This document shows, in pieces, positions 3,001-51,485 of a stretch of 64,000 nt of DNA (its first letter is position 1; every line of letters starts with the position of its first letter). Source of the DNA: Ruditapes philippinarum. Its lineage: Eukaryota. The DNA lies in contig NW_026859228.1 of assembly GCF_026571515.1 (NCBI RefSeq), positions 124,001 through 188,000 of the forward strand, read 5' to 3'. A program made the translations under genes and the position numbers. The notes under the pieces were generated by a model that was given only the letters and a program-made list of their open reading frames with translations, ran no database searches and was not told the DNA's origin.

Positions 3001-3135
3001 ACCAACCAAATTGTGCATTTTAATCATCTCAATCCACTTACCTTGAGTTATTGCCTTATTGATGAAATTTGATAAAAAAAAATCTCTCCAATATGTGAGA
3101 ATTTTTGTAAAGCACTGTCATACTTGAATACATTT

Positions 3136-3370
3136 GAGCCGTGTCACGACAAAACCAACATAGTGCGTTTGCGACCAGCATGGATCCAGACCAGCCTGCG
3201 CATCCGCGCAGTCTGATCAGGATCCATGCTGTTCGCTTACCAACCCTTTTACAAGTAGAGAAACTGATAGCGAACAGCATGGATTCTGATCAGACTGCGC
3301 GGATGCGCAGGCTGGTCTGGATCCATGCTGATCGCAAACCCATTATGTTGGTTTTGTCGTGACACGGCTC
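3136..3370. mobile_element. Palindromic MITE (non-autonomous DNA transposon, Sola-like termini), copy 1
   Basis: About 100-bp near-perfect inverted arms GAGCCGTGTCACGACAAAACC...GGTTTTGTCGTGACACGGCTC, flanked on both sides by ATTT (4-bp TSD). A second copy lies at 6659-6893. GAG..CTC termini with a 4-bp AWWT TSD resemble Sola; the superfamily call is inference. Confidence 0.85.
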
Positions 3371-6300
3371 ATTTTACTATCCTCTTATTTGGAAAGAATG
3401 GATGATTGGCCAGATATATCTACATTATTGTCTCGTCTGAATGAAGAGCTCTCATCTTAGATAACAAACGTAACAATCGCTATCTTTATGCTATAAAACT
3501 TATTAACTTTGGATTAAAGGAAATAAGCGAAATATTTAAAGAATTTAAGAATGCAGTATTCATTCCAACACGAGTTACGAATAACAAATATAACTAGTTC
3601 ATGGTGGAAACTGATTAAAAATGTCTTTTGCAAATATTTGAGTATTACGGTTGTCGGCGTGGCTGGGTTATATCGAGAACGTTGCATTGCCTTCTTGATA
3701 ATTGTTTCATCCTTTGTATATAATGGTTGCTGTCAATGCATTAAGAAAAAAAGCTGCTCATATTTAAATTTTTATATGCAAAATGTCTTTTTATTAAGTT
3801 CTCAGAAGTTTCTGTTGACAACAATGTTAATTAAATACACACAAGTGACAATACAATATTTACGATGTACAAGAACGAGTCAGTTTATTAATTTACTTTG
3901 AACATGGCTTCATCTGTTTAGTTGACACACGCCTTTGAATCATCTTGTAATTAAAAATATATTTAAAATAATCACTTTAACTGTTTTTAACAAAATATGA
4001 AAATATGAAAGTAAAACATATTTTGTCCTTTAATAATTTTAGTGATACGAGACAATTAAAACAATGATTAATTTTAATTTAAAATTATGCCCCCTTCCAC
4101 CCGACCCCCTCCCCCCAAAAACGACTTTGAAAGTATTAGTTCAATCTTTTGTTGAAATTAACATTATTTAATACATAACTTTGATAAACTTTCTTTTCTG
4201 GTAAGATCCAGAGCCGATATAGGTAAGGTAGTTGCCTTGTCGAATATTATTTTCATTAAGAATGCAGACAAGGAGAGATTGACTTGACCAACTCGTATAA
4301 ATATTGACTACATTTGACGCTTATTGGATGACAGTAAAACAGGTGTATATGATACCGTTGTAATTTAGAATTGGAATGATGCAGTCACAGAAAGCTTATA
4401 ATAATAACATAATAACTTCTTGACCTTGGGCGAACTTTTACAACAATTAGGTAAAGAGTGCAATTATAGTCCAATATATTATCGTAGCTTTATCAACGTG
4501 TTGTCAACCAAGGTAATAATTTACACGTGAAAACTGAAATCGATCAGTTGTAATTTGCACGGTTCGTGGACGATTTGTACAAATTGGTAGCGACTACCTC
4601 TGTCAGTTGAATAACCTCCTAGTAATAATCACCTACTAAGTTTCTACAAGTTTTCAATAGATGAAGAGCCGGCAGATGTTTTCCTTGTTACTAAAGAAAA
4701 TGGTATGACAAAATTCACCGTCGCTTTGCATATGAACGGGCACAGGGTGGACAAAAACCGTACGCTAACAGGCATTCTTTGCTTTACTTAATGATAGATT
4801 GAAATTTATGTCTTTATTTAACAAGTAACCTAATACTGCTATGTCAGCTAGAGGACTATCATCCAGCCTACACCCACTGTCCGTTTATGCTTTTTTTCTC
4901 CTATTTTTAACTGTTACTGAATAACATTGCACTTTTCCGACAACGGTCATTGGCGTCTTATGAAACAGATAATTTAGCGTAGGAATTTGGCATCCTCCTA
5001 CATGTTGTTAAAGAATTTGCTTAGCGATTATTGAAATAAATTAATATGCATCAGACATGGAAAACGTATTTAATTATAATCAGGTGAGGCGTCTAATCAA
5101 GGCATGTCTGTAATAGAAATGAGCGAATTAAAGAATTAAAGTGAATCAGTTAATGAATAAATATGGCCACGTAGCACCTGGATTAATTTATTATATCTGT
5201 ACCACGATGATGGGTAATGGATTAGTGATCAAATGTAATCAAATTGACCATTGATCAGCCATGATGTTTTGGACATTGAGCGTGAAATGTTAAGAAAACC
5301 AGAACATAAAGTTCACTCTTGAATAATTTTTGAAACAAATTTACCGTCAAAAAATCAAGTCTTTTAAGTACTAGCGTCTCAACTGTGTTTTCATATTTCT
5401 ACATTGGTATTTATATGTCTGTAATACATTAATAAGATCGGCGATAGTTAAATACCTTTTTATTGCCGAAAATTAACTTAAAATTGATATTTTCATAAAA
5501 GAGACTCTGAATAGATTCGATAGCACATTTAGATTCAGGGTAGCGTGAAACAGGATTTACCCAATGATATTGAGAAAAATGACGGCCTCCGCGGGAGGCT
5601 CTGGGTTCAAATACTTTCTCTTTTATTCAAGTATTATGCGGTAGAGGGGTTTAAACCCAATATGATTTCAGAATCTATCAACCAGTGGATGATATATTAA
5701 ATACTGTTCATAATATATCGTAATCATATTGTGGCAATATGTTGCCAAAATATGTGTCTTTCTATAGCTTGAAACAAATTTTCTAATTTTACAAATAGAA
5801 TCCATATATCATAAGGACGCACATCAAGATCTAACTTACAAAAAGAAAATACTACAAGAAATAAACCTACATAACAGAGCCGATTTTTCATCCTCTTTAA
5901 CTCTTCCCCAAAATGAAAAAGAAAGTGAAACAAAAACATTATTCACACATACTTACACAAGAACAAAAACCTTTGGTAGATTAGAAGAATGATGTTTACA
6001 CAAGAACTGGAAGAAAAGTTAAACAAATTTGAACCGATGTAACCAAATAAGGTAAGCCTCTTACATTTATTTGAACTTATCTACTTTATAGTCTATTTCT
6101 ATATCATATCCTTAACTTCTACCGATCATTGTAATTAAAGAAAGTGCAAATGAGATTTTCATGTATTATTGCCTGTCCAACTCATACAATGGAAGGTATG
6201 ATGATGATTTTTGCTCGGATGCTCTCTCGAATGCAGAACCACCTTTGAACTGTCAATAAATCTCCAACTTAGATGTAAAAATGGAACTTGAAACTTTCAT

Positions 6301-6658
6301 ATAGTTATAAATCTTTCACTTTATATTTTAAGCTAAAAACACAATGAAGAAAGAAAAAAAAGTAAGAAAAGGAAAAAAGAAGAAAGCGTTTTTTGCAAGT
6401 TTTTCTTATCCGATCATTCTTATTCAAACAGTTGTCTTATTCATGCTACAAACATGAATTAGATGTTTCTACATCACTTCAACTTATCCACAATAAAATC
6501 TTTTAAGCAGAAAACATGTTACATTTCACTTGTTGACATTTATAAATTAAATGTTCACCATTCGTTCAATCGTTTATGTATACCAATATACCAGGTGTAG
6601 AACATAAAACATTCGTATGTGTCACTAAAGTCAATAACTTCATTTTAGAAGATAATTT

Positions 6659-6893
6659 GAGCCGCGTCATGACAAAACCAACATAATAGGTTTGCGACCA
6701 GCATGGATCCAGATCAGCCTGCGCATCCGCGCAGTCTGATCAGGATCCATGCTGTTCGCTAACAAACCCTATTACATGTAGAGAAACTGATAGCGAACAG
6801 CATGGATCCTGATCAGACTGCGCGGATGCGCAGGCTGGTCTGGATCCATGCTGGTCGCAAACCCATTATGTTGGTTTTGTCGTGACGCGGCTC
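6659..6893. mobile_element. Palindromic MITE, copy 2
   Basis: Closely similar to 3136-3370, with the same ATTT-GAGCC...GGCTC-ATTT boundaries. Confidence 0.85.
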
Positions 6894-7030
6894 ATTTCAT
6901 GATACAATTTGATTTCACTTTTTAGGCCGCATAAATCTTTCAAAAACAGAGCTTAATACAGAAAATAAAGTGTTTGTTGTCTTTTTTATATTAAATTTTT
7001 GATTTTAAGTACATCGTACTTGAATGCACT

Positions 7031-13041: not shown

Positions 13042-15139
13042 TTATACCCCCAAAAACGATGTTTGGGGGGGGGGGGGGGGTATATAGGAGTCCACCTGGT
13101 GGTCGTCGGTCGGTTGGTTGGTCGGTCGGTCGGTCCAGCGGTCCGTTGCATTTTCCTTGTCCGGAGCATAGCTTGAAGACTAATCATACAATGGTCAAGA
13201 GCAATGAGAAGAAGTGCGGTGCATAAAAACCGTAACTCTATCTTGACAAATTACAGAGTTATTGCTCTTTGTTACTTTTCCTTGTTCGGAGCATAACTTG
13301 AAAACTACTGGTTGAAACTCGAAACAACTTCATACAATTGTCAAGCACAATAAGGGAAAGTGCAGTGCACAATAACCATAACTCTATCTAAAGTCATAAC
13401 AGAGTTATTGCCCTTTGTTATTTTTCCATTGCTTTCTTTTGTTCGGACTATAACTTGAAGACTAATAGTTGGAATTCAATATAACTTCATACAATGGTTA
13501 AGCACATTGAGAGGAAGTGCAGTGTAAAAGAACCATAACTCCATTTTGACTAATTACAGAGTTACTGCCCTTTGTTACTTTTCCTTGTCCGGAGCATAAC
13601 TTGAAAACTACTAGTTGAAACTCAAAACAACTTCATGCAATTGTCAAGCACAATAAGGGGAAGTGCAGTGCACAAGAACCATAACTCTATCTAAAGTAAT
13701 TACAGAGTTATTGCCCTTTGTTATTTTTCCATTGCTTTCTTTTGTCCGGACTCAAACTTAAAGACTAATTGTTGGAATTCAATATAACTTCATACAATGG
13801 TCAAGCACATTGAGAGGAAGTGCAGTGCATGAGAACCATAACTCCATTTTTACTAATTACAGAGTTATTGCCCTTTGTTACTTTTCCTTGTCCGGAGCAT
13901 AACTTGAAAACTACTGGTTGGAATTCAAAACAACTTAATACAATGGCCAAGCACAATAACGGGAAGTGCCATGCATAAGAACCATAACTCCATTTTGACT
14001 AATTACAGAGTTATTGCCCTTTGTTACTTTTCGATTGCTTTTTTTGCCCGGAGCATAACTTGAAGACTACTAGTTGGATTTCAATATAACTTCATACAAT
14101 GGTCAAGCACATTGAGAGGAAGTGCAATGCATGAGAACCATAACTCCATCTTGACTAATGACAGAGTTATTGCCCTTTGTTACTTTTCCTTGTCTGGAGC
14201 ATAACTTGAAAACTACTGGTTGGAATTCAATACAACTTCATGCAGTTGTCAAGCACATTAAGAGGAAATGCAGTGCATAAGAATTATAACTCCATTTTGA
14301 CAAATAACAGAGTTATTGCCCTTTGATACTTTTCCTTGTCTGGAGCATAACTTAAAACATACTGGTTGGAATTTAAAACAACTTCATACAATGGTCAAGC
14401 ACAATAAGAGAAAGTGCAGTGCACAAGAACCATAACTCCATTTTGACTAAATTACAGAGTTACTGCCCTTCGTTACTTTTCCTTGTCCAGAGCATAACTT
14501 GAAAAACTACTAGTTGGATTTAAACCTATTTCATACTATGGTCAAGTATATTGAGAGGAAGTGCAGTGCACAGAAAGCATAACTCTTTTTTTGACTAATT
14601 TAAAAGTTTTTGGCCTTTTTGTTACTTTTTATTGTCCAGTGCATAACTTTAAAAATTAATGGTTGGAATTCAATGAAACTTTATACAATGGTCAAGGGCA
14701 GTGAGATGAAGTGCAGTAACACAAGAACAATAACTCTATTTGGACTAATTACAGTTATTGCTTTTGTTACTTTTTGTCGCAGTGCATAACTTGAAAACTA
14801 GTAGTTGGAATTCAATACAACTTCATACAATGGTCAAGCGCAATGAGAGGAAGTGCAGTGTACAATAGCCATAACTCAATCTTCATTATTTATAGAGTTA
14901 TTGCCCTTTGTTCCTTTTCCTTGTCTTTCTGGACTTCTTACAGAGTAATCCAATAAAACTTCATCAATGGCCAACCACATTGAAAGGAAATGCAACATAC
15001 AAGAACCACAACTATCTTTAATTGCCCACAACCATAACTCTGTTTCAATTCTTTACAAGGTATTTTGTTACTAGTAACATCCTCATTTCCGAAGCAGTCT
15101 TGCAGGGGGTATTAATCACATTTAGTGATAGTTCTAGTT
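13042..15139 (+). mobile_element. Helentron-associated non-autonomous element (HINE/DINE-1-like) with an internal ~146-bp tandem array
   Basis: 5' ATACCCCC with a nearby inverted GGGGTAT, then a (GGTC)n microsatellite and about 12 tandem monomers. It ends with a 3' GGGGGTAT subTIR (15105), an ATCAC..GTGAT hairpin and CTAGTTT. The element is absent from the matching T-rich intron site in units 2 (about 26290) and 3 (about 34425). Confidence 0.85.
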
Positions 15140-16246: not shown

Positions 16247-16303
16247 TTAAATAAAATCAAAATGTAAATCATTATTTTGATGTAATATTCTTTTCAGGCA
16301 TAA

Positions 16304-18019
16304 ATGGAGGTCCCCGGGAAACTTGGCCATGAAGACACGACATTACTATGTCTCCCGTGTGATAGAGATGGTTTGAAGGAACCAGTTTATGGTTTTTGCC
16401 AGGACTGCCAGGAGCATCTATGTGAAACATGCTACAAACATCACAGACGTGCACGTCCATTAAGAAATCATGTCCTAATCGACAAAGAATCCATGCCAAA
16501 GACCCGGGCAATCGCATCTACAAAATCGGACGATACGGCAGATCTTTGCGAGAAACACCTTGATAAACCATTAGAATTCTATTGTAGAGATCACAAATTG
16601 GTAGCTTGTTATGTTTGTGTGACCCTGGAACACAAACAATGTAACGTGGATTACATTCCTGATGTTTCTGGAAACATATCTGACGAGATGACAGATATAT
16701 TAGAACAAATGGAATCGTTGATTACAAAATGTAAATGGAATGTAGAATATGTTAGCAAAGCTGCGCAAAATCTAGATCAGAGTCATTCTAAAGTTGTTGA
16801 AGATATCAAAGTCTTCAGGAAAGAAATAAATGAATGTTTGGATAGAATGGAAACCCAGATATTAAAAGAAGCTGACACAATTGTAAAAGGTGCAAAAAGT
16901 AAACAGGAAACCGTATTAAATGCTTGCTTAGAGATAACTGAAGAACTTGAATGTTCACATTCGTTGTTAATTGCATTAAGAGAAGAAAACAAGCAAAACA
17001 AGCTTTTCATTGAGATGAAAAACGCCGAAAAACGTCTATCGATATTGACAGATAAGGAAGTGCAAGTATCAGATGCAAATGCAACAATTAAATGTATCAA
17101 ATTTACAAGGAACACAAGCCTCTTAGATCGACTGCGGAATGACAATGAATTTGGAACATTGTTAACAGGTGTACAGCCGTCTTCAGATAAAACATTAAAT
17201 TTACAATATGATGATACACTAAACCTGAAGTATAAATCCGATAAGAAAGAATGTCACATCACTGGTATAGCTATGATTGCTCCTATGAAAATTATTGTTG
17301 CTGACAGTAACAACAACAGTATCAAAATGATTGACGTTGAGACAAGATCTGGTATAAAAGAGATAATTTTGTCTTCACGACCAGATGATGTTGTTACTAT
17401 TCCAGAAAAAAAAATAGCTGTGACTTTAACAAATGAAAAAATTATTCAGTTATTGTCTCATACTGAAGCAGAACTTTCATTAGATCGACGTATAGCTGTA
17501 GGAGAATATTGCAATGGTGTAGCTTATTGCCAGAATAAGTTTGTTGTATCTTGCTGGGATTCAAAGAAAATAATTATTATCAATCATGAAGGAGATATTC
17601 TCAATGTCCTTGGTTCTCCTGCTATGTTTTATGGACCAGTCAGAGTTTCGGTCAGCAATGATGAGAAGTTCATATATGTCTCAGATACGGATTTCAAAAA
17701 CAATAGCAAGGTTGTGAAAATTGATTGGAAAGGAAATGTTATCAACAAATTTGTAGACTCCAGATGTAAATCTCTCTTGGCTCTACACATGTTAGAAGAT
17801 GACACGGCACTAGTGTGTAACAGATACAGTAACACTGTCCTTAGACTGTCAAGCAGCTTAAAGAGATGTGACATCAGTGGACTAGAGAAAGAAAATATCT
17901 ATTTCCCAACAGCTGTAACATACTGTGATAGAGAACAAAAACTGTACGTTTGTTGTTCATCAGTGAAAGAAGACTGGCGGGCTGATATTGTGAAAGTATT
18001 CCAAATGTATTGGATCTAG
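16304..18019 (+). CDS. RING-less TRIM-like protein (B-box1, B-box2, coiled coil, NHL-like beta-propeller), copy 1, intact, 571 aa
   Basis: B-box1 CLPC..CQDCQEHLCETCYKHH..H and B-box2 CEKH..FYCRDH..ACYVC..EHKQC. A heptad-rich helical middle is followed by six blade-like repeats (e.g. ITGIA..IIVAD.NN.IK, CNGVAY..FVVS, GPVRV..FIYVSD, PTAVTY..KLYV). Acceptor TTTTCAG ends at 16297; AATAAA at about 18035. Confidence 0.93.
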   Translation: MEVPGKLGHEDTTLLCLPCDRDGLKEPVYGFCQDCQEHLCETCYKHHRRARPLRNHVLIDKESMPKTRAIASTKSDDTADLCEKHLDKPLEFYCRDHKLVACYVCVTLEHKQCNVDYIPDVSGNISDEMTDILEQMESLITKCKWNVEYVSKAAQNLDQSHSKVVEDIKVFRKEINECLDRMETQILKEADTIVKGAKSKQETVLNACLEITEELECSHSLLIALREENKQNKLFIEMKNAEKRLSILTDKEVQVSDANATIKCIKFTRNTSLLDRLRNDNEFGTLLTGVQPSSDKTLNLQYDDTLNLKYKSDKKECHITGIAMIAPMKIIVADSNNNSIKMIDVETRSGIKEIILSSRPDDVVTIPEKKIAVTLTNEKIIQLLSHTEAELSLDRRIAVGEYCNGVAYCQNKFVVSCWDSKKIIIINHEGDILNVLGSPAMFYGPVRVSVSNDEKFIYVSDTDFKNNSKVVKIDWKGNVINKFVDSRCKSLLALHMLEDDTALVCNRYSNTVLRLSSSLKRCDISGLEKENIYFPTAVTYCDREQKLYVCCSSVKEDWRADIVKVFQMYWI

Positions 18020-18214: not shown

Positions 18215-18520
18215 TCAGATACATGTTTGAGCAATAGTAAGAATGCTTTAAAATTGATTGTGAAGGGAATTGCATGAACGTTTTTGAAGAAACAGGATCT
18301 TTATGTCTATGGTACTATATGATCTATAACCATAAAAGATGAGATGATACCTGTGTGTTTCAAAGGCAGCGATACGTCTTGAAACCGCCTAGCAGCTTAA
18401 ACAGATATGGTATTATTATACTAGAGAAAGCGAATATTTATCATCCATAAGTTGCAACATTCTTTGACGAATAAATGAATGCTAGTATTGTTAAACTGTT
18501 TCCATTTCAAACGGATCTTC
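18215..18520 (+). pseudogene. Decayed duplicate of the TRIM-like 3' coding end (last propeller blades)
   Basis: AAAATTGATTGTGAAGGGAA..AACGTTTTTGAAGAAACAGGAT..GCAGCTTAAACAGAT..CTAGAGAAAGCGAATATTTATC aligns to about 50735-51035, with many stops and indels. Confidence 0.75.
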
Positions 18521-23467: not shown

Positions 23468-23795
23468 AATGTAATAATAATAATATCATATTTACAATAA
23501 ATCATATTTCAAACGTTTCTTAACAAGGTGAATTTAAGTACTTAATAGTGTTGTGTTTATTACATTCTTTTAGGATAAATATGTATATTGATAGATTTCA
23601 CAACATGTCATGTAACTTAAGTACACATTGTAAATAAACGAACGGGTGTGTTGTATAGTGGATGAACTGACTTTTACATTTTTATACTATTAGTGTATAT
23701 AACTGCTCTGATCAACTCGCACATTCAAACTCCCCAGACTGGGCTTTAAGACAAGTATTTATCATGAAAACTCAACAAGTAAAACCACTGATGTA

Positions 23796-25949
23796 CAGCG
23801 TCCACCGGATATAGCCCCAAAAAACATCGAAAACGAAAGTAGAAAGCTGCACACCGAGTACACCCAAGGTAATGTTTTAACTTATTTCTTCATCATAACT
23901 TTATCGATTTTTCCATACTAAACAATATTGTGAAGCTAAATATGTCTAGTTTTAGAGCAGTGTTTGCTTTTCTCTGCAAATTCAATACTTTTTGTTAAAT
24001 TGGTGATAAATTGTAGCGTATTTGTTGACAATTGCGAACGATGTTGATATTTACCACTAAATCAAGCCCAAAACGCATTTGCTGTATCAAATTTCGCCGT
24101 TAATACAAACTATAGTCATTCCTCTACTAATATTTGAGTTTTCACTCTTCAACTCGAGCTGCTTTTAACAAAATTTACAAAAAACGGCATTGCCTTGTGT
24201 ACAGAGTCTAGCACGGATATGTACGGGGTGTAGTAGGTAAACAAATGTCATTTTCTGCAAAATAAATTCAGAACCAGAGCATATACACGTACGCTGATGA
24301 AGAAAACGATCAATGTCGGGAGCAAGGATTGTGAGTTGAATGATTTTAATTTTATAAAGGATAAAAATGTTTAATAAAATTATTAACATGTTACCAAACA
24401 GTAAACAGTTTCCGTCCTGCTAGACCACTTTTCATGCGTGACTATAAGTTACAATGTAATAGGAAAAATGTTAAACTCAAAAGACCACAATTTCAATCCA
24501 TATTGGAAGAACATTACATCAAATTCTATAATGTGTCTTAAACAATATCAAACCATGTTCGAGTTATGCATTGTGAACAAAACTTGATCTAAACTTGTCA
24601 TATTCGTTTATTAGTTTACCGGTCTTAAGACTTCATTGAAAAACAATAATATACAATGCTGCCGCTTATGCTGCTGCTTTTCAGAAAATGATAATAATGA
24701 CTATTCAATGATGATGACGATGATGATAATATGATGGTATTTTAGTTTTCAGTTCAACAATGCCATATCAATGAACAGCTAGAGTGTGCAGAGATATATG
24801 AAACATTGAAAGAGTCTATTCGGCATATTATAGAATATCCTTTCAATTTGGAAATTCGACATAGAGAGTTAGAAGTGAATTCATCTGATGTTTCTTCCAC
24901 AAATGCTGACATGTATTGGACTTATCTCAAGAAGATGACACATTTGCAGAGTTAGTACAGATTCTACCAGCTGTGATGACAGTGGTCAGCTAGAAGAATA
25001 TGTACTATACAACAAATTGTAGCAGAGAAACGGTATCTCAATTCTAAGTCGACAAGGCGGCTAGAACTGTTTTATAATTTTTTAAGACAGTGCTAATGCC
25101 GTTTTGTAGAAAACGACACTCGTGCATAATCTTTTAAGTGTCTGTCTGATCAATTATCGACCTCCTGTCTTATGTGTAGGTTAGTTATACATGTATATAT
25201 ATGAATATATCCCCATTCGAACCATTTTCATTCAGCGAGTTGGTCAGAAAACTCCCCAACACGTCTTATAAATACCGACAGACACTATTCAGCTTATGAT
25301 TGTCATGGTGTGACACGTAGAACAAAAACACTAAAAAGTTAAATTATTTAACAAATAACTCTTTATCCTCCTCTAATTTTTCATGTTTAGTCTGAAATGA
25401 GATTATTTCCAATTAAAAAATAATATAAAAGACTATACTTTAAAAAATATGTTACTGCTAGACTCCGTAAACATCTACTTAACTCTGTACATTAAAGTAC
25501 TACACCCCGTTCACTTGAATTTGTATTCTTTGCTAGACTCTGTACACAAGGCAAGGCCGTTTTTTTTGCAAATTTTGTTAAAAGCAGCTCGAGTTGAAGG
25601 ATGAATACTGAAACATATGTAGAGGGATGACTATAGTTTGTATTAAGGGCGGAATTTGATACAGCAAATGCATTTTGGGCTTGATTTACTGGTAAATATC
25701 AACATCGTTTGCACATGTCAACAAATAGGCTACATTTTTCACCAAGTTAACAAAAAGTATTCAATTTGCAAACAAAAGCGAATATTGCTCTAAAACTAGA
25801 AACATTTAGCTTCACAAAATTGTTTAGTTTGGAAAAATCGATGAAGTTATGATGAAGAAATAAGTTAAAACATTACCTTGGGTGTACTCGGTGTGCAGCT
25901 TTCTACTTTCGTTTTCGGTGTTTTTAGGGGCTATATCCGGTGGACGCTG
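23796..25949. mobile_element. Tc1/mariner-type non-autonomous element with ~440-bp terminal inverted repeats
   Basis: ta-CAGCGTCCACCGGATATAGCCCC...GGGGCTATATCCGGTGGACGCTG-ta. The arms run to about 24235 and 25500. No transposase ORF; absent from units 1 and 3. Confidence 0.88.
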
Positions 25950-27689
25950 TACAAAAGTGAAAACTGTCAACATAAATATACATTCTCCTAATAATTGATA
26001 TTTGATATACATGCACGCGCCTTGAGTTGTATGTAGAACTGATATCGATCATTCTTGACATATGAATTTTGTACACCTTTATATACATGAATTGTGAAAT
26101 TAGATAAAAGCCTAAATGTATATCTACATGTCGACTTGTCATGATGTGCAAACAGTATTTATCTAAATTTGTCAATACAGTTAACATAAGTTAATAATAA
26201 CTTTGTGTCCGAAAGGTAGTTTTTTGTATATGTAGTGAATATTTGTTGCGTTTGTTTTTGAAGCATGGGGGTTCCTTTTTTGTTTATTTTTTATTTTATT
26301 TTGCCCAGTTACTTATCAAATTTCCTTAGAATACCTACGCATATTGAAGCAAATTAGCAACAGATAAAAATAAAGTAGAACAAACTTTAACTTTAAAGGC
26401 ACATTATGCTTCCAAACCAAATAATTTTCTTTCCTTAGTAAGGGCAACATGAGTTTTAAAACCTTTCAATAAGGTATTTTTATAATGTTAGATCATTATA
26501 TCCTTAAGACTCAATGTATCGATAAATGTGAAAATACTTGTCATGAATGTAGCAAAATGTAAATAAATTAGGATTTTGACTTTCATACAAAATTCAAAGT
26601 TAATAAAACTGTACCAATTGCCCCCCCCCCCCGGCCCCTTCTTTTCGAAAATTATCAGAGGACACCAACAATAATTTGTTTTTTGAAAAATAAAAATTTA
26701 AGCATTTGTTGGGTGTAATGGGCCTTTAAGGAAAGAAATTAGCAAACATTATGAATGTTCAAATGTAAGTTTATATGAAATATTTATACAGTTAAAAAAG
26801 ATTTATTTTCCCAGAAAATCGCTTCTAGTGAATTAATCCGGTGGAGGATACGCGCCCTGCCCCCCCCCCCGGCATATACATATTCTGTGTCATTATTTTT
26901 AAGGCCTGGCTACAGCATTTTTAAAGGTCGTTTATATGAGGAACTTAAGTTTCCGCTAGTTATTCAAGGAAAGGTCTATCTATATTTCTAAATTTGATAC
27001 TTCTTTCATTATATTTAATCAAATGAAAATATCCTTTTATTTCAAAATATTGACCTTTTGTTCATTTAGTTATTTAATTTATTCTTACCTACCCTTTACA
27101 CACTGTATTCCCGTTAATCAGACAGATAAAGGATGCAATAATGAAATTGTTGATAGTATTAGCATTAAATGATGAAACTGATGGTCAAAATTTTATAAAA
27201 ATACAAACGATTAAATCATCTTAATAAGATGTGTACGGCAAAAATAGAGGGTGAAAACTGACGAAGCATTAACGGCACACTTTGTCCCAGAAACAAAAAA
27301 AAGAAGATTTTATTCTTTTGGAAGTGCAAACATGAATTTTATGATGTAAAATAATGATTTTAGAGATTATAAGATGTTTGTTACATGAAGAAAATAATGA
27401 TAAATGTGAAATAATAAAAGTAGCAAAATGTAAACAACATAGAATTTTGACTTCCATACAAAATACTTATTCATTATAACTGTACATATTGTCAAAAAGG
27501 AAGAGATTGAAAAAATGGTTCAGGTTAATGTTCAATGAGTAACTTTTTTGGATACTGTAAAAGTACACCAAAATTAAAAAAAAAAAATTTTGAGAAATAA
27601 AAATTAAAACATTTCTAAAGAATAATGGACCTTTAAATAAAAACAAAATGTAAAACATTATTTTGATGTAATATTGTTTTCAGGCATGA

Positions 27690-29397
27690 ATGGAGGTCTC
27701 CGGGAAACTTGGTCACGACGACTCGACATTAGTATGTATCCCGTGTGATAGAGATGCTGTAAAGGAACCAGCTTATGGTTTTTGCCAGGACTGCCAGGAG
27801 CATCTATGTGAAACATGCTACAAACATCACAGACGTGCACGTCCATTACGAAATCATGTCCTCATTGACAAAGAATCCATGCCAAAGACCCGGGCAATTG
27901 CATCTTCAACATCGGACGATACGGTGGATCATTGCGAGAAACACCTTGATAAACCATTAGAATTCTATTGTAGAGATCACAAACTGGTGGCTTGTTATGT
28001 TTGTGTGACACTGGAACACAAACAGTGTAAGGTGAACTATATTCCTGATGTTTCTGAAAACATGTCTGATGAGATGACTGATGTATTAGAACAGTTGGAA
28101 TCGTTTATTAAAAGATGTAAATCGAAGGTAGAATATGTTAATAAAGCTGCGCGAAATCTAGACCAGAGTCATGCGAAAGTTGTTGAAGATATCAAAGTTT
28201 TCAGGAAAGAAATAAATGAATGTTTGGATAGAATGGAAAACCAAATATTCAAAGAAGCTGACTTAATGGTAAACAGTGAAAAAAGTAAAGAGGAAACCGT
28301 ATTAAATGCTTGCTTAGAGATAACTGAAGAACTTGAATGTTCACATTCGTTGTTAATTGCATTAAGAGAAGAAAACAAGCAAAACAAGCTTTTCATTGAG
28401 ATGAAAAACGCCGAAAAACGTCTACCGATATTGACAGATAAGGAAGTGCAAGTATTAGATGCAAATACAACAATCGAATGTATCCAATTTACAAGGAACA
28501 CGAGCCTCTTAGATCGGCTGAAGAACGAGATTGAATTTGGAACATTGTTAACATGTGTACAACCGTCACCAGATAAAACATTAAACTTACAATATGATCA
28601 TACACTAAACGTGAAGTTTAAATCCGATAAGAAACAATGCCATATCTTGGGTATAGCTATGATTGCTCCTATGAAAATAATTGTTGCTGACAATGCCAAC
28701 AACAGTATCAAAATGATAGACGTTGAGACAAAATCAGTTATAATAGAGACAATTTTGTCTTCACAGCCATATGATGTTATAGCTATTCCAGGAAATAAAC
28801 TAGCTGTGACTTTAACAAATGAAAAATGTATTCAGTTATTGTCTCATACTGAAGCAGAATTTTCATTAGATCGACGTATAGCTGTAGGAGAAAATTGCAG
28901 TGGTGTAGCTTATTGCCAGAATAAGTTTGTTGTCTCTTGCAGGGCATCAAAGAAAATAATTATTATCAATGATGAAGGAAATATTCTCAATGTCCTTGGT
29001 TCTCCTGCTATGTTTTATGGACCAGTCAGAGTTTCGGTCCGCAATGATGAGACGTTCCTATATGTTTCGGATACGGATTTTGAAAACAATAGCAAGGTTG
29101 TGAAAATTGATTGGGAAGGAAAACAAATTCGAAGACTCAAGATGTAAATCTCCTTTGGCCCTACAACTTTTAGAAGATAAAACGACACTCGTGTGTTACA
29201 GAGACAGTAACACTGTCCTGAGATTTTCGAACAGCTTAAAAAGATGTCATACTATTGGACTAGAGAAAGCAAATATTTATTCCCCAACAGCTGTAACATA
29301 CTGTGACAGAGAACAAAAACTGTACGTAAGTTGTTCATCAAAGAAAGAAAATTGGACGGCTGATATTGTTAAAGTATTCCGTGTGAATTGGATCTAG
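27690..29397 (+). pseudogene. TRIM-like copy 2, frameshifted by an 8-bp deletion at about 29122
   Basis: ORFs 27690-29147 and 29107-29397 join. Copy 1 reads GGAAA[TGTTATCA]ACAAA where copy 2 reads GGAAAACAAA. Length 1708 = 1716 - 8. Confidence 0.9.
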
Positions 29398-29694: not shown

Positions 29695-29930
29695 CATATT
29701 AAAAGATTCAGGATATGGAGGTCCTTATGGTCTACAACCATTCGAAGATGAGACGATACTTGTGTGTTTCCAAGATAACGATATTTCTTGAGACAGGCTA
29801 GCAGCTTTAAGAGACATTGAATTATTTGACTAGAGGATATTTATCATCTATTAGCTAAAACATTCTTTGACATAGAATATATGAATGCTGAAATTGTCAA
29901 ATCAAGTGTTTTAATATTAAACGGATATAA
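29695..29930 (+). pseudogene. Decayed duplicate of the TRIM-like 3' coding end
   Basis: TCAGGATATGGAGGTCCTTATGGTCTACAACCATTCGAAGATGAGACGATACTTGTGTGTTTCCAAG closely matches copy 4 at about 42437-42503. Confidence 0.8.
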
Positions 29931-34109: not shown

Positions 34110-35917
34110 AATTTAATAATATTAATATCATACTTGCAATAAAATCATATTTCAAACGTTTGTCAACAAGATGAATTTAAGTACATAATACTGTTGTGTT
34201 TATAACGTTCTTTTATGATAAATATGTATATTGATAGATTTCACAACATGTCACGTGACTTAAGTACATTGTAAATAAACGATCGGGTGAAAGATAAAAT
34301 TTCTATTCAATACAGTTAACCTTAGTTTATAATACCTTTGTGTCCGAAAGGTAGTTATTTGATATGCAGTGAATATTTGTTGTGTTTGCTTTTGTTGCAC
34401 GGGGATTCTTTATTTGTTTATTTTTTATTTCATTTTGCCCAATTACTTATCAAATTCCCTTCGAAAACCTACACATATTGAAACAAATTGACAATAGATG
34501 AAAATAGAGTAGAATAGATTTTAACTTTAAAGGCAAATTATGCTTCAAAACCAAATAAATTTCTTTCCTTAAAAAGGGCAACATGACTTCTAAAACCTTC
34601 CAATAAGGTATCTATTATCATTATCCCCTTAAGACTCAATGTATCGATAAATGTGAAAATATTCGTCATCAGTGTAGCAAAATGTAAATAAATTAGGATT
34701 TTGACTTTCATACAAAATCAAAGTCACTAAAACTGTACCAGTTGCCCCCCACCCCGGCCCCTCTAAAAAAAAGCAACAGAAGCAACAGTTCAAGTAATTG
34801 ACCAATTAGTAACTTTTCGAAATTATAAGAGGGCACAAAAAATTTTGAGAAATAAAAATAAAGCATTTATTAGGTGTAATGGGCCTTAAGGAAAGACATT
34901 AGTAAACATTATGTATGTTCAAATATTAGTTAAACATTAAAGATTATTATTAAAATACCTAGAAAATCGCTCCTAGTAAAATAATATGTGGGAGCATGCG
35001 TGCACTACACCCGCATATACATATTCTGTTTCATTATTTTCAAGGCCTGGCTACGGTATTGTTAGAGGTCGTTTATTGCGCAAATGAACTTTAGTATCCT
35101 TTGTTGTTCAAGATAAGATCTATCTTCATTTCGAAAAAATTTGATACCTTTTTTCATTTTACTTAATCTGACCAAATGACAATATCGTATTGTTTTGTTG
35201 TTGTTTTTTCTTCGTTTTTTTAGTTAATGACCTTTAGATCATTTAGTTATTTTATCTAATTTTACTTACCCCTAACGCTATGCACGTCCGTAAACTAAAC
35301 AGATAAAGGGTGTAATGATTAGTTTGTTGACAGAATAAATTTGGTAAACAAGATCAACAAGGAAAGGCGGCGTTCAACGCACGCAACCCCCACACGATCC
35401 AGTAACTTGAGTCAGTTATAAATGTTGAAATTGTCAAAGTTTTATAAAAAAATAAACAATGAAATCATCATAATAAGATGTGTACGGTTTAAGGCAAAAT
35501 TGAAGTAAAAACTGATTGAAGCATAACAGGCAAACTATGTCCCAGAAAGAAATAAAGTTTTACTTCTTTAGAAATGGCAAACATGAATTTTATAATGTTA
35601 AAATAATGTTTTTGGAGTCTGTTAGATGCTAGTTATATGAAGGAAGTAACGATAAATGTGAAATAATTTGTCTTAAAGGTAGCAAAATGCAAACAACATA
35701 GTAATTATACAAAATACTAACTGTACATATTACAAAAAAAGAACAGATGAAAAAGATGGTAGTTCAGGCAATTGACAAATGAGTAACATTTTGGATACAC
35801 AATAATTAAAGATTTTTGAGAAACAAAAATAAAAAACATTTCTGAAGATTAATGGGCCATTGAATATAATCAAAATATGAAACATTCTTTTAATGTAATT
35901 ATTGTTTTCAGGTATAA

Positions 35918-37633
35918 ATGGAGGTCCCCGGGAAACTTGGTCATGAAGACTCTACATTACTATGTCTTCCGTGTGATAGAGATGGTTTGAAGGAAACAGT
36001 TTATGGTTTTTGCCAGGATTGCCAGGAGCACCTATGTGAAACATGCTTCAAACATCACCGACGTGCACGTCCATTAAGAAATCATGTCCTCATTGACAAA
36101 GAGTCCATGCCAAAGACGCCGGCAATCGCACCTACAACATCGGACGATACGGCGGGTCATTGCGAGAAACACCTTGATAAACCATTAGAATTCTATTGTA
36201 GAGATCACAAACTAGTGGCTTGTTATGTTTGTGTGACTCTGGAACACAAACAGTGTGATGTGGACTATATTCCTGATGTTTCTGGAAACATGTCTGAAGA
36301 GATGACTGATATATTAGAACAAATGGAATCGTTGATTACAAAATGTAAATCGGATGTAGAATATGTAAGCAAAGCTGCGCAAAATCTAGATCTGAGTCAT
36401 GCGAAAGTTGTTGAAGATATCAAAGTTTTCAGGAAAGAAATAAATGAATGTTTGGATAGAATGGAAACCCAGATATTAAAAGAAACTGACACAACTGTAA
36501 AAAATGCGAAATGTAAACAGGAAACCGTATTAAATGCTTGCTTAGAGATAACTGAAGAACTTGAATGTTCACATTCGTTGTTAATTGCATTAAGAGAAGA
36601 AAACAAGCAAAACAAGCTTTTCATTGAGATGAAAAACGCCGAAAAACGTCTGTCGATATTGACAGATAAGGAAGTGCAAGTATCAGATGCAAATGAAACA
36701 ATCAAATGTATCCAATTTACAAGGAACACGAGCCTCTTAGATCGACTGAAGAATGAGAATGAATTTGGAAAATTGTTAACATGTGTACAACCGTCTTCAG
36801 ATAAAACATTAAATTTACAATATGATGATACACTAAACGTGAAGTATAAATCCGATAAGAAAGAATGTAACATCACCGGTATAGCTATGATTGCTCCTAT
36901 GAAAATTATTGTTGCTGACAATTACAACAACAGTATCAAAATGATTGATGTTGAGACAAAATCAGTTATAACAGAGACAATTTTGTCTTCTCAACCAAAT
37001 GATGTTATAACTATTCCAGGAAATAAACTAGCTGTGACTTTAACAAATGAAAAATGTATTCAGTTATTGTCTCATACTGAAGCAGAACTTTCATTAGATC
37101 GACGTATAGCTGTAGGAGAATATTGCAATGGTGTAGCTTATTGCCAGAATAAGTATGTTGTCTCTTGCTGGGCATCAAAGAAAATAATTATAATCAATCA
37201 TGAAGGTGATATTCTCAATGACCGTGGTTCTCTTGCTAGGTTTTATGGACCAGTCCGAGTTTCCGTCAGCAATGATGAAAAGTTCCTATATATTTCAGAT
37301 ACGGATTCCGAAAACAATGGCAAGGTTGTGCAAATTGATTGGGAAGGAAATGTTAAGAGCATTTCTAACGACTCGGAATGTAAAGTTCCTTTTGGTCTTC
37401 AAATGTTAGAAGATGACACGGCACTTGTGTGTTACGGAGACAGTAACACTATTCTGAGACTGTCAAGCAGCTTAAAATGATGTGACATTATTGGACTAGA
37501 GGTAGCAAATATTTATAGCCCAACAGCTGTATCATACTTTGACAGAGAACAAAAACTGTACGTAAGTTGTTCATCAATGAAAGGAAAATGGAAGGCTGAT
37601 ATTGTTAAAATATTCAATGTGTATTGGACCTAG
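35918..37633 (+). pseudogene. TRIM-like copy 3, premature TGA (from AGA) at 37478-37480
   Basis: 520-aa ORF. The frame continues in register to the homologous TAG at 37631-37633 (total 1716 nt, as in copy 1). The stop removes the last blade. Confidence 0.88.
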
Positions 37634-37842: not shown

Positions 37843-38100
37843 ATCAGATACATGTTTGAGCAACAGTAAGAATGTTTTAAAATTGGTTGTGAAGGGAATT
37901 GCATGAACGTTTTTGAAGAAACAGGATCTTTATGTTTATGGTACTATATGATCTATAACTGATACCTGTGTGTTTCAAAGGCAGCGATACTTCTTGAAAC
38001 CGCCTGGCAGCTTAAACAGATATGGTATTATTAGACTAGGGAAAGCTATCATCCATAAGCTGTAACATTCTTTGAGGAATAAATGAATGCTAGTATTGTT
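37843..38100 (+). pseudogene. Decayed duplicate of the TRIM-like 3' coding end
   Basis: Close paralogue of 18215-18495, truncated at about 38100. Confidence 0.75.
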
Positions 38101-40975: not shown

Positions 40976-42696
40976 ATGGAGGTTCCTGGTAAACAAGACG
41001 AAGAAGCTTCAAGAGCTGATGACACAACATTAATATGTCTCTCTTGTGATATTGATGGTTTAAAGGAACCAGCCTATGGCTTCTGTCAGGACTGCCAGGA
41101 GCACCTATGTGAAACATGCTATAAACATCACAGACGTGCACGTCCATTTAAAAACCATGAACTCATTGACAAAGAATCCATGCCAAATATCCGGGTAATT
41201 TCATCGGACGATACCGCAGATCTTTGCGCCAACCACCAAGATAAGCCATTAGAATTCTATTGCAGAGACCACAAATTGGTGGCTTGTTATGTGTGTGTTA
41301 CATTGGAACACAAACAGTGTAAAGTGGACTATATTCCTGATGTTTCTGGAAGCCTGTCTGATGAGTTTAATGATCTATTAAAACAAATGGAATCTTTAAT
41401 AACAAAATGTCAATCAAACATAGAAAATATTAGCAAAGCTGCCCAAAGTCTAGACCAGAGATATGCAAAATTTGTTAAAGATATAAGTGCCTTTAGGAAA
41501 AAATTGAATGAGTGTCTGGATCGAATGGAAACCGAAATAATTAATAAAGCCGAATCGTTTGTAAAGAATGCAAAAATTAAACAAAAAACCATAAAATCTG
41601 CTTGCTTAGATGTAACTGAAGAACTTGAATATTCACATTCGGTTGTAAGTAAATTAAGAGAAGATGCCAAGCACAACAAGCTTTTTATTGCGATGAAAAA
41701 TGTCGCAAAACGTCTGCCTTTACTGGAAGATAAAGAAAATTAGTATTAGATGAAAATACAATAGATGATTGTATCAAATTAACCCGGAACACAGATCTGA
41801 TTAATCAATTTGAATCTGAGAATGTGTATGGAATATTGTTTACAGGTGTACAACCTTCTCCAGATAGAACAATAAATATACAATATACGGATACGATTAA
41901 CATGAAGACCAAATCCGAAGAGAAACAATGTAACATCATGGGTATGGTTATGATTGCTCCTACAAGAATGATCGTTGCTGACAATACAAACTTCAAAATC
42001 AAACTAATTGACAATGAGAAATGTGTAGTCGTGACGGAGAATAAGATGTCCTCACAACCGGTTGATGTTATAATTCTTCCAGAAAATAAGCTTGCTGTGA
42101 CATTGGAAAGTGAAAAGTGTATTCAGATAATGTCTTATACTGATGTAGATCTTTCATCAGATCGACGTATAGATGTTAAAGAACTTTGCAACGGGATAGC
42201 TTATTGTCATTATAAGTTTGTTGTCACTTGCTGGTCATCTAAAAAAATAATCATTATCAATCTTGAAGGATGTATTCTCAAAGTTTTACGTTCTCCTGCT
42301 ATGTTTAATGGGCCTAGCAGAGTTTTGATCAGCAAGGATGAGAAGTTTCTATATGTAACAGACAGAGATTTGAGGTCTAACAGCAGTGTTATGAAAATTG
42401 ATTTGGAAGGAAATCTTATTAGCGTTTTTAAAGAGTCAGGATATGCTGTTCCTTATGGTCTGCAACAATTAGAAGACGAGACGATACTTGTGTGTTTTCA
42501 AGACAGAGGAACTGTCCTGAGACTAACAAGCAGCTTAAAGAGATGTGACATTATTGGACCAGAGAAGGAAAATATGTATCGCCCAAAAGCTATAACATAC
42601 TGTCACATATATCACAAACTTTATGTAAGTTGTTCATCAGAGAAAGGGAAACAAAACGCTGATATTGTGAAAATATTCAATGTTAAGTGGATCTGA
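40976..42696 (+). pseudogene. TRIM-like copy 4, frameshifted by a 1-bp deletion at about 41736-41739 (573 aa if restored)
   Basis: ORFs 40976-41743 and 41824-42696 are in different frames. Adding one base to GAAAA restores ..DKE(K)LVLDENTIDDCI, matching copy 5. Acceptor TTTTTTCAG lies 6 nt before the ATG. Confidence 0.82.
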
Positions 42697-48237: not shown

Positions 48238-49320
48238 TTAACGGTTTTCTTTTTAGTAAGATTTAAGGTTTTACAACAAGTCATGAAACATTTAATATTT
48301 TATCTAATCTAAATGAACTAAATAAAAGATTTCTAGCTTTGAAATTTTGTTAATGAAAATTAACAGGGAAACGTTATAGTCATGTGCAATAAGAAATTAT
48401 CTGATATGCCATGAAGATTTTAAGTATAAATAACTTTACAGAATCAGAAAATATGTGTGATGACTTAATGACTCGTAGTTGAAAGTTCTTGTCATGTCTC
48501 TGTGTCTTTTTTTTAATTTTGTGTATGTGTGTTTGTATACGCTTAGGCTTTCGCAAACCTTGCTACGGCATTGCTGGACACTTATATTAAAAGCTTTTTA
48601 AATCTGACATTATTAAAGTACGGTCGTTGTTTTTTGAATTTCATAAAGGTTCTTCTTTTTAAATGGACTTAAAAGATGGATAAAAAATTTCCATTCATGG
48701 TCAATATATTAGATAAATTTATGGAATACAAATAGAACACTATGACATAAAACATCATGGGGGCTAGTAAATGTAAAATGAGAAAGCTTGCCTCTTCGGT
48801 TAAAACCTTCTGGAGCAAACTGTTGATTCCTGGAACAAGAAACTTTGAACTCACCTAGTTCTGGTGAATTACAGGAACGGATTCGTATGTGTGTTTTATA
48901 GCTTGCCGAGGAGAAGATAACATTTGATAATATTTACCTGGTTTATATTATATAAGGCAAAAATCAAATGAACAGTCCGTAAACTGAATATTTCCTTATT
49001 TTTACATTATCATGCATTTGAGTGAAGTAAATAAAAATGTTTTGGCCCGAAAATATATAATGAACCTAGACCTAATTGTCTTTAATCAAGTTATGATGTA
49101 TTGACCGTTAATTTAGGCAAATTTATTTGATTTCACTTCCTCAGTCAACTATGTGACATTAAAGTGCGCCGTTCACAAGACATGAAAAAGGTGCAATGAT
49201 TTGATTGTTAAAATACTTAGCTGGTCACTTTATGAAAAGTGTATGGTTTCAGACAAAAATTAAGTTTTAAGCCAAAATATAATTGTTATTTTTTTCATGT
49301 AATATTTTTTTCAGGTATAG

Positions 49321-51036
49321 ATGGAGGTCCCAGGAAAACTAGGCATTGATGTCACAAAATTAGTATGTCTCCCGTGTGACATTGATGGTTTGCAGGAACC
49401 TGCTTATGGCTTCTGCCAAGACTGTCAAGAGCATCTATGTGAAACATGCTACAAACATCAAAGACGCGCACGTCCATTCAAAAACCATGCTCTCATTGAC
49501 AAAGACTCTATGCCAATGTCCCTGATAATGTTACCTAATATATCTGACAATAGAGCGAATCTTTGCGAGAAGCATCAAGATAAACCGCCAGAATTTTATT
49601 GCAACGATCACAAATCGGTGATGTGCTATGTCTGTGCTACACTAGAACACAAACAATGTAATGTGGACTATATACCTGATGTTTCGGAAAACATGTCTGT
49701 GGAGTTGAATGGTATATTACAACAAATGGAATCGTTGGTTATTAAATGTATATCCAACACAGAAAATATTAATAAAGCTACGCAAAATCTAGACCAGAGT
49801 CATGCAAAAGTGGTTGAAGATATCAAAGTATTGAGGAAAGAGAGAAATGAATGTTTGGATAGGATGGAAACAAAAATATTGGAGGAAGCTGATATAGTTG
49901 TCAAGAATGCAAAATATAAACAGGAAACCGTTAAAGCTACTTCCTTAGAGATTATGGAGGAACTCCAATGTTCATATTCGTCGTTAAATACATTAAAAGA
50001 AGAAAACAAGCAAAATACGCTTTTTATTGAGATGAAAAATGCCACAAAACGTCTGCAAATACTGACAGATAAGGAAAAGCAAGTAATAGAAGCAAATACA
50101 GCAGACGATTGTATCCAATTTACACGGAACCCAAGCCTAATAGACGGTCTTAAGACTCTGAATAACTATGGAATATTGTCAACAAGAGTACATCCGTCCT
50201 CTGATAGAGCATTAGATTTACAATATTCGCATACAGTAAATGTGAAATCTGCATCCGATAAAAAAGAGTGTAACATCACAGGTATGGTTATGATTGCTCC
50301 AAAGAAACTGATTGTTGCTGATTATAATAACAACAGCATAAAACTGATTGACGTTGAGAATGGTTCAATAATAATAGAAGCAAGGATGCCTTCCAAAACG
50401 TATGAAGCTATTAAACTTTTAGGAAATACGCTTGCTGTGACTTCGGTGGAGGAAAAGTGTATTCAGATATTGTCTTATAATGACACCGGACTTTCATTAC
50501 AACGACATATAACTGTCAGCGAAGCATGCAATGGGTTAGCTTATTGTCAAAATAAGTTTGTTTTTTCCAGCTGGAAAGTAGGGAAACTAAGCATTCTTAA
50601 CTTAGATGGAGATGTTCTTAATGTGTTTGGTTCTCCTAGTCTATTTCATGGGCCCCTCAGAGTGATATCCAGTAATGACGAGAAGTTCCTTTATGTATCA
50701 GATGCAATGAACGGCCAAAATCACAAGGTTATGAAAATTGACTTTGAAGGAAATGTTAAGAACGTTTTTGAAGAACCAGGATATGAATATCCTTACGGTC
50801 TGCAACAATTAGAAGATGACACGACATTAGTGACTTACAGAGGCAGTGATACTGTCCTTAGATTGTCGAGCAGTTTAAAAAGGTGTGAGATTGTTGGACT
50901 AGATAAATTAAATATTTATCAACCGAAAGCTTTAACATACTGTGACAGAGAACATAAATTGTACGTCAGTTGTTCAACCAAGAAAGGACAACTGAATGCT
51001 GATATTGTCAAAGTATTCAATCAGAAGTGGATATGA
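49321..51036 (+). CDS. RING-less TRIM-like protein (B-box1, B-box2, coiled coil, NHL-like beta-propeller), copy 5, intact, 571 aa
   Basis: Open 571-aa ORF colinear with copy 1. Acceptor TTTTTCAG lies 6 nt before the ATG. Confidence 0.93.
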   Translation: MEVPGKLGIDVTKLVCLPCDIDGLQEPAYGFCQDCQEHLCETCYKHQRRARPFKNHALIDKDSMPMSLIMLPNISDNRANLCEKHQDKPPEFYCNDHKSVMCYVCATLEHKQCNVDYIPDVSENMSVELNGILQQMESLVIKCISNTENINKATQNLDQSHAKVVEDIKVLRKERNECLDRMETKILEEADIVVKNAKYKQETVKATSLEIMEELQCSYSSLNTLKEENKQNTLFIEMKNATKRLQILTDKEKQVIEANTADDCIQFTRNPSLIDGLKTLNNYGILSTRVHPSSDRALDLQYSHTVNVKSASDKKECNITGMVMIAPKKLIVADYNNNSIKLIDVENGSIIIEARMPSKTYEAIKLLGNTLAVTSVEEKCIQILSYNDTGLSLQRHITVSEACNGLAYCQNKFVFSSWKVGKLSILNLDGDVLNVFGSPSLFHGPLRVISSNDEKFLYVSDAMNGQNHKVMKIDFEGNVKNVFEEPGYEYPYGLQQLEDDTTLVTYRGSDTVLRLSSSLKRCEIVGLDKLNIYQPKALTYCDREHKLYVSCSTKKGQLNADIVKVFNQKWI

Positions 51037-51485
51037 ACATTACAAAGAAAATGATGGATATGATAAAAGTTTCTTTACAAAATTGTTGTGTCTTCATTAT
51101 ATGAGAACTATACAATTGAAATATAAACATGCACACTTCGTAATATTTCAACTAATGCATATTTCTAATGCTGTCGTAACATTTGATCCATAATACATAA
51201 ATCTCATTTTAATTTCTACAAGAACGTTTCTTAGTGGACATACCGTATGTAACCATGTCCTCAAATCAAAGACGGTATCTAGATAGAATTGGCTAATGGC
51301 TCAGAGTAATTCCGGTTGTCCCGAACCGACGAAGGTAATCTGTTAAACTATTATGAAATATTAAATAATTCCGATCTTCAGTCGCATGTTTCCTACACAG
51401 TTGGGGCAACTGCTTCTAACAAAACCCATCTTTGTACGCTTTAAAACTAAGCAGTCTGATAAAGCCGTCAATGCTTATTATAAGG

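Follow-up and report, generated by a model that had tools for sequence, protein, structure and literature searches.

A window of 64,000 nucleotides from Ruditapes philippinarum contains five tandem copies of one gene in AT-rich animal DNA, all on the forward strand and each with an uninterrupted coding part. Two of the five copies (1 and 5) are intact and three (2, 3 and 4) are broken. Copy 1 (16304..18019) is an intact 571-residue open reading frame encoding B-box 1, B-box 2, a coiled coil and an NHL propeller, without a RING domain, and an in-frame TAA lies directly before its ATG. Copy 5 (49321..51036) is likewise an intact 571-residue reading frame and shares 64% identity with copy 1. Copy 2 (27690..29397) carries an 8-bp deletion near 29121 that shifts the frame in blade 4 of the propeller, copy 3 (35918..37633) has a premature TGA at 37478-37480 (codon 521, blade 5), and copy 4 (40976..42696) has a 1-bp deletion in an A-run near 41738, 5' of the propeller, which may be an assembly error. 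Copy 1 has itself replaced the blade-5 proline with Leu (17774-17776) and has four more private changes at otherwise invariant sites, and may be starting to decay.

Decayed C-terminal halves of the propeller are found 3' of copies 1-3 (18250-18468, 29699-29877 and approximately 37880-38075). These relics are closest to copy 4 (about 71% identity for 18250..18468, forward strand) and were duplicated together with the copies that precede them. The closest named homologs of the window genes are uncharacterised proteins of R. philippinarum (17 matches); seven of the named homologs are apparently on the same contig, suggesting that the array runs on past the window. The proteins P0006 and P0007 show just 2 differences ahead of the propeller, compared with 47 inside it. 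Copies 1-3 share an identical tract of 133-139 nt (16898..17038 in copy 1, forward strand; codons 199-245) within the coiled coil (permutation p=0.0005-0.0015), which is probably the result of gene conversion, and the tree topology among these three copies shifts along the gene. The combination of homogenised coiled coils and divergent propellers could allow mixed dimers.

Several other features of the window were recorded. A stop codon stands in frame directly before the ATG of four copies (16301-16303 TAA, 27687-27689 TGA, 35915-35917 TAA and 49318-49320 TAG); it has been kept through both codon changes, and could reflect chance or the end of an upstream open reading frame. A perfect 57-bp inverted copy of 50405-50461 (copy 5 codons 362-381, blade 2) is located at 51775-51831 on the reverse strand, 740 bp after the copy 5 stop and past the first AATAAA/ATTAAA signal at 51360; it looks like a recent templated insertion. 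Upstream of copy 1, positions 13184-14930 hold a tandem array of approximately ten units of about 146 bp with a higher-order period of 303 bp. Two 243-bp elements (3132-3374 and 6655-6897) are 95% identical, each nearly palindromic and MITE-like, and a 430-bp inverted repeat pair (23786-24213 and 25531-25959; 91% identical, 1.3 kb apart) lies between copies 1 and 2.

Domain architecture and propeller fold

The N-terminal half of copy 1 begins with B-box 1 (16349..16474, residues 16-57), which is recognised by its Cys/His pattern and by a Pfam match to ANCHR-like_BBOX (E=8e-4) that falls under the curated cut-off, followed by B-box 2 (16538..16636, residues 79-111), which matches zf-B_box above cut-off (E=6e-6). 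Pfam searches of the window proteins return B-boxes and weak NHL repeats, and zf-B_box scored above cut-off in all three full-length proteins scanned. Residues 119-262 (16658..17089; dN/dS 0.48) are presumed to form a coiled coil, based on their position, sequence character and the TRIM architecture. Only about 35 residues separate this region from the propeller, and no filamin domain was matched by Pfam. A RING domain was likewise absent from the Pfam matches of the four proteins scanned, and a regular-expression search for a RING pattern was negative for all 76 long representatives of the family and for all 44 Mercenaria paralogs. An upstream RING exon is ruled out for four of the five copies, as the in-frame stop directly before the ATG comes after a splice-acceptor-like site. 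The absence of RING rules out a canonical TRIM (RBCC) E3 ligase, while a C-terminal B30.2/PRY-SPRY domain is ruled out by the identification of the C-terminal domain as an NHL propeller with Pfam, AlphaFold and Foldseek.

The propeller of copy 1 (17195..18013, residues 298-570) corresponds to the range 17195-18019 singled out by an earlier note on this DNA. The AlphaFold model, built on a 149-sequence alignment (pLDDT 96.8, pTM 0.93), has six four-stranded blades, with the first strand closing blade 6. The best sequence and structure matches are the NHL domains of TRIM2, Mei-P26 and Brat: Foldseek places TRIM2 NHL (7qrv) first (E=2e-14, TM 0.77), with Mei-P26, Brat and TRIM71 near it in rank and seven-bladed G-beta chains at lower TM.

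The top face of an NHL propeller is made up of the b-c and d-a loops, and the bottom face of the a-b and c-d loops, as defined in the available text of PMC4015489. Faces were assigned to the clam propeller by this published definition from strand topology (AlphaFold secondary structure) rather than coordinates, giving strict classes of 72 positions in top loops, 48 in bottom loops and 153 in strands. By this topology the top face is predicted to face away from the linker. In blade 1 it comprises the d-a loop at 17225..17257 (308-318) and the b-c loop at 17306..17317 (335-338), in which residue 336 reads N/A/Y/T/N across copies 1-5. Blade 2 contributes the d-a loop with the position after the blade proline (P+1) at 17369..17386 (356-361) and the b-c loop at 17429..17440 (376-379), and blade 3 the d-a loop at 17498..17515 (399-404; residue 402 is Y/N/Y/L/A) and the b-c loop at 17555..17566 (418-421). 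The corresponding segments of blade 4 are the d-a loop and P+1 at 17612..17641 (437-446) and the b-c loop at 17690..17704 (463-467), and those of blade 5 the d-a loop and P+1 at 17756..17779 (485-492), where copy 1 has Leu at the blade proline, and the b-c loop at 17822..17833 (507-510). Blade 6 completes the face with the d-a loop through P+1 at 17879..17911 (526-536; residue 534 is F/S/S/R/Q) and the b-c loop at 17960..17986 (553-561). All of these segments are on the forward strand.

The family is common in molluscs and annotated in public genomes (1125 representatives at E up to 0.001), and it forms mollusc-dominated clusters in the ESM Atlas. Its homologs in Mercenaria and Ruditapes are named uncharacterised, TRIM71-like, TRIM25-like or TRIM33-like. 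An N-terminal motif resembling M-x-V-[SP]-G-[KR] (16304-16321 in copy 1) is present in 37 of 76 long representatives and persists although these representatives share only about 30% identity in the propeller. Furthermore, Cys 317, 403 and 505 (17252-17254, 17510-17512 and 17816-17818) are 82-94% conserved across 136 distant representatives, with Cys 403 standing in for the blade-3 proline.

Variation on the top face of the propeller

The earlier note had quoted eight sets of motifs that vary at the loops of the propeller blades and had proposed that these sites form one surface. All eight sets match copies 1-5 letter for letter, with several of the quoted residues located downstream of the breaks in copies 2, 3 and 4, and all eight fall in b-c loops, d-a loops or adjoining strand ends, that is, on the top face as assigned from the model topology. 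The accompanying description of the strands as largely conserved was overstated, as 57% of strand sites vary (71% in d strands). Positions with at least four different residues among the five copies number 11 of 84 in a top set that was widened after the site results were known and 4 of 189 in the rest of the propeller (Fisher p=0.0006).

A fixed-class codon model of the five copies, the five DNA sequences on which all dN/dS estimates rest, gives dN/dS values of 0.77 for the top loops, 0.43 for the bottom loops and 0.46 for the strands (p=0.0011). Since the bottom loops evolve like the strands, the variation is an effect of the face and not of loops versus strands. The contrast between top and other positions holds when codons with multiple nucleotide changes ("multi-hit") are modelled (p=0.006), when the post-break codons of copies 2 and 3 are masked (p=0.0007), when the two intact copies are taken alone (0.73 for top versus 0.26; p=0.0003) and when the 23 sites of the earlier note are removed (p=0.04); it weakens with class-specific dS (0.72 versus 0.38, p=0.075). 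The probable allele pair formed by copy 5 and P0014 has no top enrichment, as three of its eight propeller differences lie in d-a loops and a further 10 differences lie outside the propeller.

The propeller was also expected to be more divergent non-synonymously than the coiled coil. This is borne out for amino-acid divergence in the window (0.35 versus 0.30) and with shared dS (p=0.0004), but not for dN/dS when dS is free (0.54 versus 0.48, p=0.56), partly because the identical tract of 133-139 nt has made the coiled coils of copies 1-3 more alike. In five sister paralogs the amino-acid divergence is 0.22 for the propeller versus 0.15 for the coiled coil. The non-synonymous excess is restricted to the top face; top loops compared directly with the coiled coil, with free dS, do not differ significantly in dN/dS (p=0.11).

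Three independent sets of paralogs further uphold the mapping to the top face, again with faces taken from the model topology. Seven of the 17 named R. philippinarum homologs, all from outside the window (P0017 masked after residue 478), show 1.46 parsimony changes per site in top loops, 0.62 in bottom loops and 0.58 in strands (p=0.0006). A search from a representative with 30% identity returned 60 proteins, mostly from Mercenaria mercenaria, of which 44 were analysed as groups of 19 and 25 and 16 intermediate, partial or distant sequences were left out. When the copy 1 topology is projected onto the Mercenaria proteins by alignment, 59 of the 72 top columns and all 48 bottom columns are occupied. 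Top loops again change more than bottom loops (5.4 versus 2.1 changes per site in the group of 19 and 8.0 versus 2.6 in the group of 25); p is 5e-5 in both, the lowest value that 20,000 permutations can give. Some of the Mercenaria records on short contigs may be alleles. Maximum-likelihood rates for the top loops relative to the bottom loops are 1.5 in the window, 2.6 in the seven other R. philippinarum paralogs and 3.8 and 4.0 in the Mercenaria groups, and those for the 12 residues on either side of the blade prolines (P±1) are 2.9, 5.2, 8.6 and 8.2 in the same four sets, while the coiled coil and B-boxes evolve at 0.5-1.2 times the bottom-loop rate. The top face changes 2-4-fold faster than any of the other classes (bottom loops, strands, coiled coil and B-boxes). 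In a comparison of 136 distant representatives of the family, top loops vary just as much as bottom loops (entropy 2.94 versus 2.93), probably as a result of saturation.

The identity of the fastest sites differs between lineages: residue 444 is the same in all 12 R. philippinarum sequences and hypervariable in Mercenaria, and residue 361 shows the reverse pattern. Positions equivalent to the RNA contacts of Brat, named in the portions of PMC4015489 at hand, were located by counting along the aligned Brat sequence. H802 corresponds to residue 338, R875 to residue 404, Y829 to the P-1 position of blade 2 (359), and R847 approximately to residue 376, after strand b of blade 2. Three of these residues (359, 376 and 404) rank with the most variable sites of the sister paralogs.

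Positive selection on the variable sites, which the earlier note had raised, is significant in standard codon models and is lost when multi-nucleotide changes are freely fitted. Site models of the propeller favour selection (M1a/M2a p=0.016, M7/M8 p=0.002, M8a/M8 p=0.005), and segment-specific trees keep this signal (p=0.003-0.03). The N-terminal half has no positive-selection signal (M1a = M2a). Residue 534 is the best candidate (posterior 0.98-0.99), and 14 of the top 20 candidates fall inside a 48-position apex set that was defined after the first list of sites. Window P±1 codons have a dN/dS of 2.1 (p=0.004 against 1), a test that is circular in the window because the earlier note had pointed at those sites. 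With multi-hit changes fixed at 2-4% of events, P±1 dN/dS is approximately 2.0 (p=0.008-0.016) and M1a/M2a gives p=0.037-0.081; with the rate freely fitted, P±1 dN/dS is 1.5 (p=0.14) and M1a/M2a gives p=0.50 with one tree or 0.10 with three segments. The freely fitted rate, approximately 11% of events, is above what flanking DNA suggests, as five blocks of flanking sequence contain 85 adjacent mismatch pairs versus 72 expected and allow about 2-4% multi-hit changes. Masking the post-break codons gives an M1a/M2a p of 0.14.

Sites picked from the independent sets and evaluated on the window codons have dN/dS values of 0.95, 0.95 and 1.36, none significantly above 1, placing them at roughly twice the background and not above neutral. 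In simulations, P±1 diversity exceeds the neutral expectation if the background dN/dS is at least 0.36 (all three protein sets) or 0.25 (both Mercenaria groups), while at a background of 0.15 the protein-only data need no positive selection; non-top positions of the window have a dN/dS of 0.26-0.46. Taken together, these results are suggestive, and it is on balance probable that diversifying selection acts on the top face.

Proposed function and rival explanations

The family joins the architecture and fold described above to a tandem array with broken copies and relics and to a conserved blade scaffold (P, G and D positions). The reading that we favour, by a modest lean, is that this RING-less, TRIM-like bivalve family, subject to birth and death in tandem arrays, works as a variable recognition repertoire. 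TRIM proteins are cytosolic, dimerise through their coiled coils and oligomerise through their B-boxes. By the same biology, the clam protein would be cytosolic, dimeric through its coiled coil and oligomeric through its B-boxes, and would present the top face of its propeller. Each paralog's top face would bind a different, fast-changing and probably non-self ligand, such as a pathogen protein, glycan or nucleic acid. Because the family has no E3 domain of its own, output would come from clustering, sequestration or the recruitment of a RING-bearing partner. This suggests that clams may possess a large set of variable intracellular sensors.

The main rival to a recognition repertoire is relaxed constraint, in which the solvent-exposed top face of these redundant duplicates no longer has an essential ligand, or never did, while packing against the linker or the coiled coil constrains the bottom face. 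On this view the asymmetry is genuine and would arise without diversifying selection. We consider this unlikely, but serious. Top loops as a class have a dN/dS of 0.6-0.8, the wider apex has a value of 1.04 that is not different from 1, independently chosen site sets lie near 0.95, and three of the five copies are broken with relics downstream, all of which would be expected under relaxation. However, the fastest class consists of 12 residues wedged between fixed scaffold residues, which change 8.6x compared to 2.4x for other d-a positions, and the hot sites (444 and 361) move between clades. Non-top dN/dS is 0.27-0.58 on every terminal branch, broken copies included, indicating that the fold is maintained. 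Residue composition bears on both sides: at variable apex sites Trp and Tyr account for 56 of 595 distinct residues, compared with 7 of 181 in bottom loops (p=0.019, a weak test), which argues against relaxation, while Tyr at the variable apex sites is approximately 6%, equal to the neutral codon expectation of 6.3%. An aromatic, paratope-like composition was consequently given little weight, as Tyr is at its neutral expectation and the counting of distinct residues inflates rare ones.

It is also conceivable, though improbable in our judgement, that the targets are endogenous (RNA, as for Brat and LIN-41, transposon products or host proteins) and that the face was diversified by genetic conflict or subfunctionalisation and not by pathogens. 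The RING-less architecture resembles that of Brat, NHL top faces are described as plastic RNA readers in the available part of PMC5908797, and in many paralogs the top face carries a mild positive charge (up to +7). On the other hand, the net charge of the top face, taken from residue counts and not electrostatics, is not conserved and spans -4 to +7 across 56 proteins (window copies 0 to +3, sister paralogs -1 to +7, Mercenaria proteins -4 to +6), and the RNA-contact residues of Brat are not kept; the top face of RNA-binding TRIM-NHL proteins is described as largely basic (PMC4015489, in part). Furthermore, in the accessible text of PMC3845644, primate TRIM2, which bears an NHL domain, has no selected site inside known domains. 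Given the spread of charges, conserved RNA binding by the top face is disfavoured, though conceivable. It seems very improbable that the pattern is an artefact produced by the small number of sequences, by gene conversion, by drift in pseudogenes or by cherry-picking of sites. Only five DNA sequences are available, copies 1-3 group differently in different parts of the gene, a probable conversion tract makes the coiled coil more uniform and some Mercenaria records may be alleles, yet the contrast persists when only the two intact copies are used, when the earlier note's sites are dropped, and in three independent sets of proteins that represent two genera. An artefact is thus largely refuted for the top/bottom contrast, and is a live concern only for dN/dS values above 1.

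A more specific form of the recognition repertoire is put forward tentatively. The bivalve NHL propeller would have been turned into a repertoire of numerous cytosolic, RING-less pattern-recognition receptors encoded in the germline, in which approximately 12 proline-flanking residues and the b-c loops form a six-fold, antibody-like variable site under diversifying selection, and in which shared coiled coils could allow mixed dimers. Elsewhere, the NHL propeller is a conserved RNA reader in single-copy developmental genes.

Comparison with known systems

In the available text of the open full-text literature, with supplements and subscription journals outside the scope, nothing was found on the diversification of one particular face in molluscan NHL proteins or on its pairing with RING loss; the parts of PMC8905726, PMC13093298 and PMC12373286 at hand contain nothing relevant on TRIM, B-box or NHL proteins. 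The window genes belong to the same family as bivalve genes named "TRIM2/3/45/71-like" or uncharacterised B-box genes, which the papers examined here treat as E3 ligases by name. According to the available sections of PMC9892467, oyster TRIM2/3-like transcripts, linked to the window family by name only, track Perkinsus tolerance, 79 TRIM-like transcripts occur in one oyster module, and such transcripts recur among bivalve disease-tolerance candidates. A B-box orthogroup, likened to the window family by name only, is listed as expanded in bivalves in part of PMC8382680. These tolerance candidates have been read as E3 ligases by name, without a mechanism, whereas the window family has no RING and its variation lies on a defined binding face. 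Consequently, the P±1 positions and b-c loops of each blade offer testable positions for ligand screens, selection scans and disease association.

The closest structural relatives are the TRIM-NHL proteins (class C-VII or subfamily C: TRIM2, TRIM3, TRIM71/LIN-41, Brat and Mei-P26), which share two B-boxes, a presumed coiled coil and a six-bladed NHL propeller with the clam family (Foldseek TM 0.77-0.79 to TRIM2 and 0.74-0.77 to Brat), and in which the same top face carries the action. Brat, too, is not known to carry a RING. In contrast to this group, the clam family is without RING and without the filamin domain of the TRIM2/3/71 type, has 15-17% identity, and exists as dozens of tandem paralogs instead of single conserved genes, with a top face that is hypervariable and not consistently basic. 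Brat is classed as TRIM-like in the available text of PMC3503706. TRIM56, as described in the portions of PMC13236048 available, is antiviral, binds viral RNA and TRIF through a six-bladed NHL-like domain, and has some RING-independent functions. This precedent indicates that an NHL-like propeller can serve antiviral recognition, although TRIM56, unlike the clam family, is a single gene with a RING and a long disordered linker and forms no repertoire.

The closest evolutionary parallel comes from TRIM5alpha and the fish finTRIM, btr and trim35 genes, described in the accessible part of PMC3137616 as tandem TRIM expansions with hypervariable, positively selected loops in the C-terminal B30.2 domain. 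Like these, the clam genes form a multigene family with hypervariable loops on the predicted ligand face of the C-terminal domain; unlike these, which have B30.2/PRY-SPRY and RING domains, the clam family has an NHL propeller and lacks RING, and its evidence for selection is less firm. The best reading, by analogy, is that the clam ligand face may be diversified as TRIM5 and finTRIM diversify B30.2. The underlying logic of tandem TRIMs diversifying a ligand face is already known, and the family is already annotated; it is a RING-less, TRIM-like NHL family that appears to work like B30.2 restriction factors. If true, this would place a propeller-based TRIM repertoire alongside the B30.2-based ones of vertebrates.
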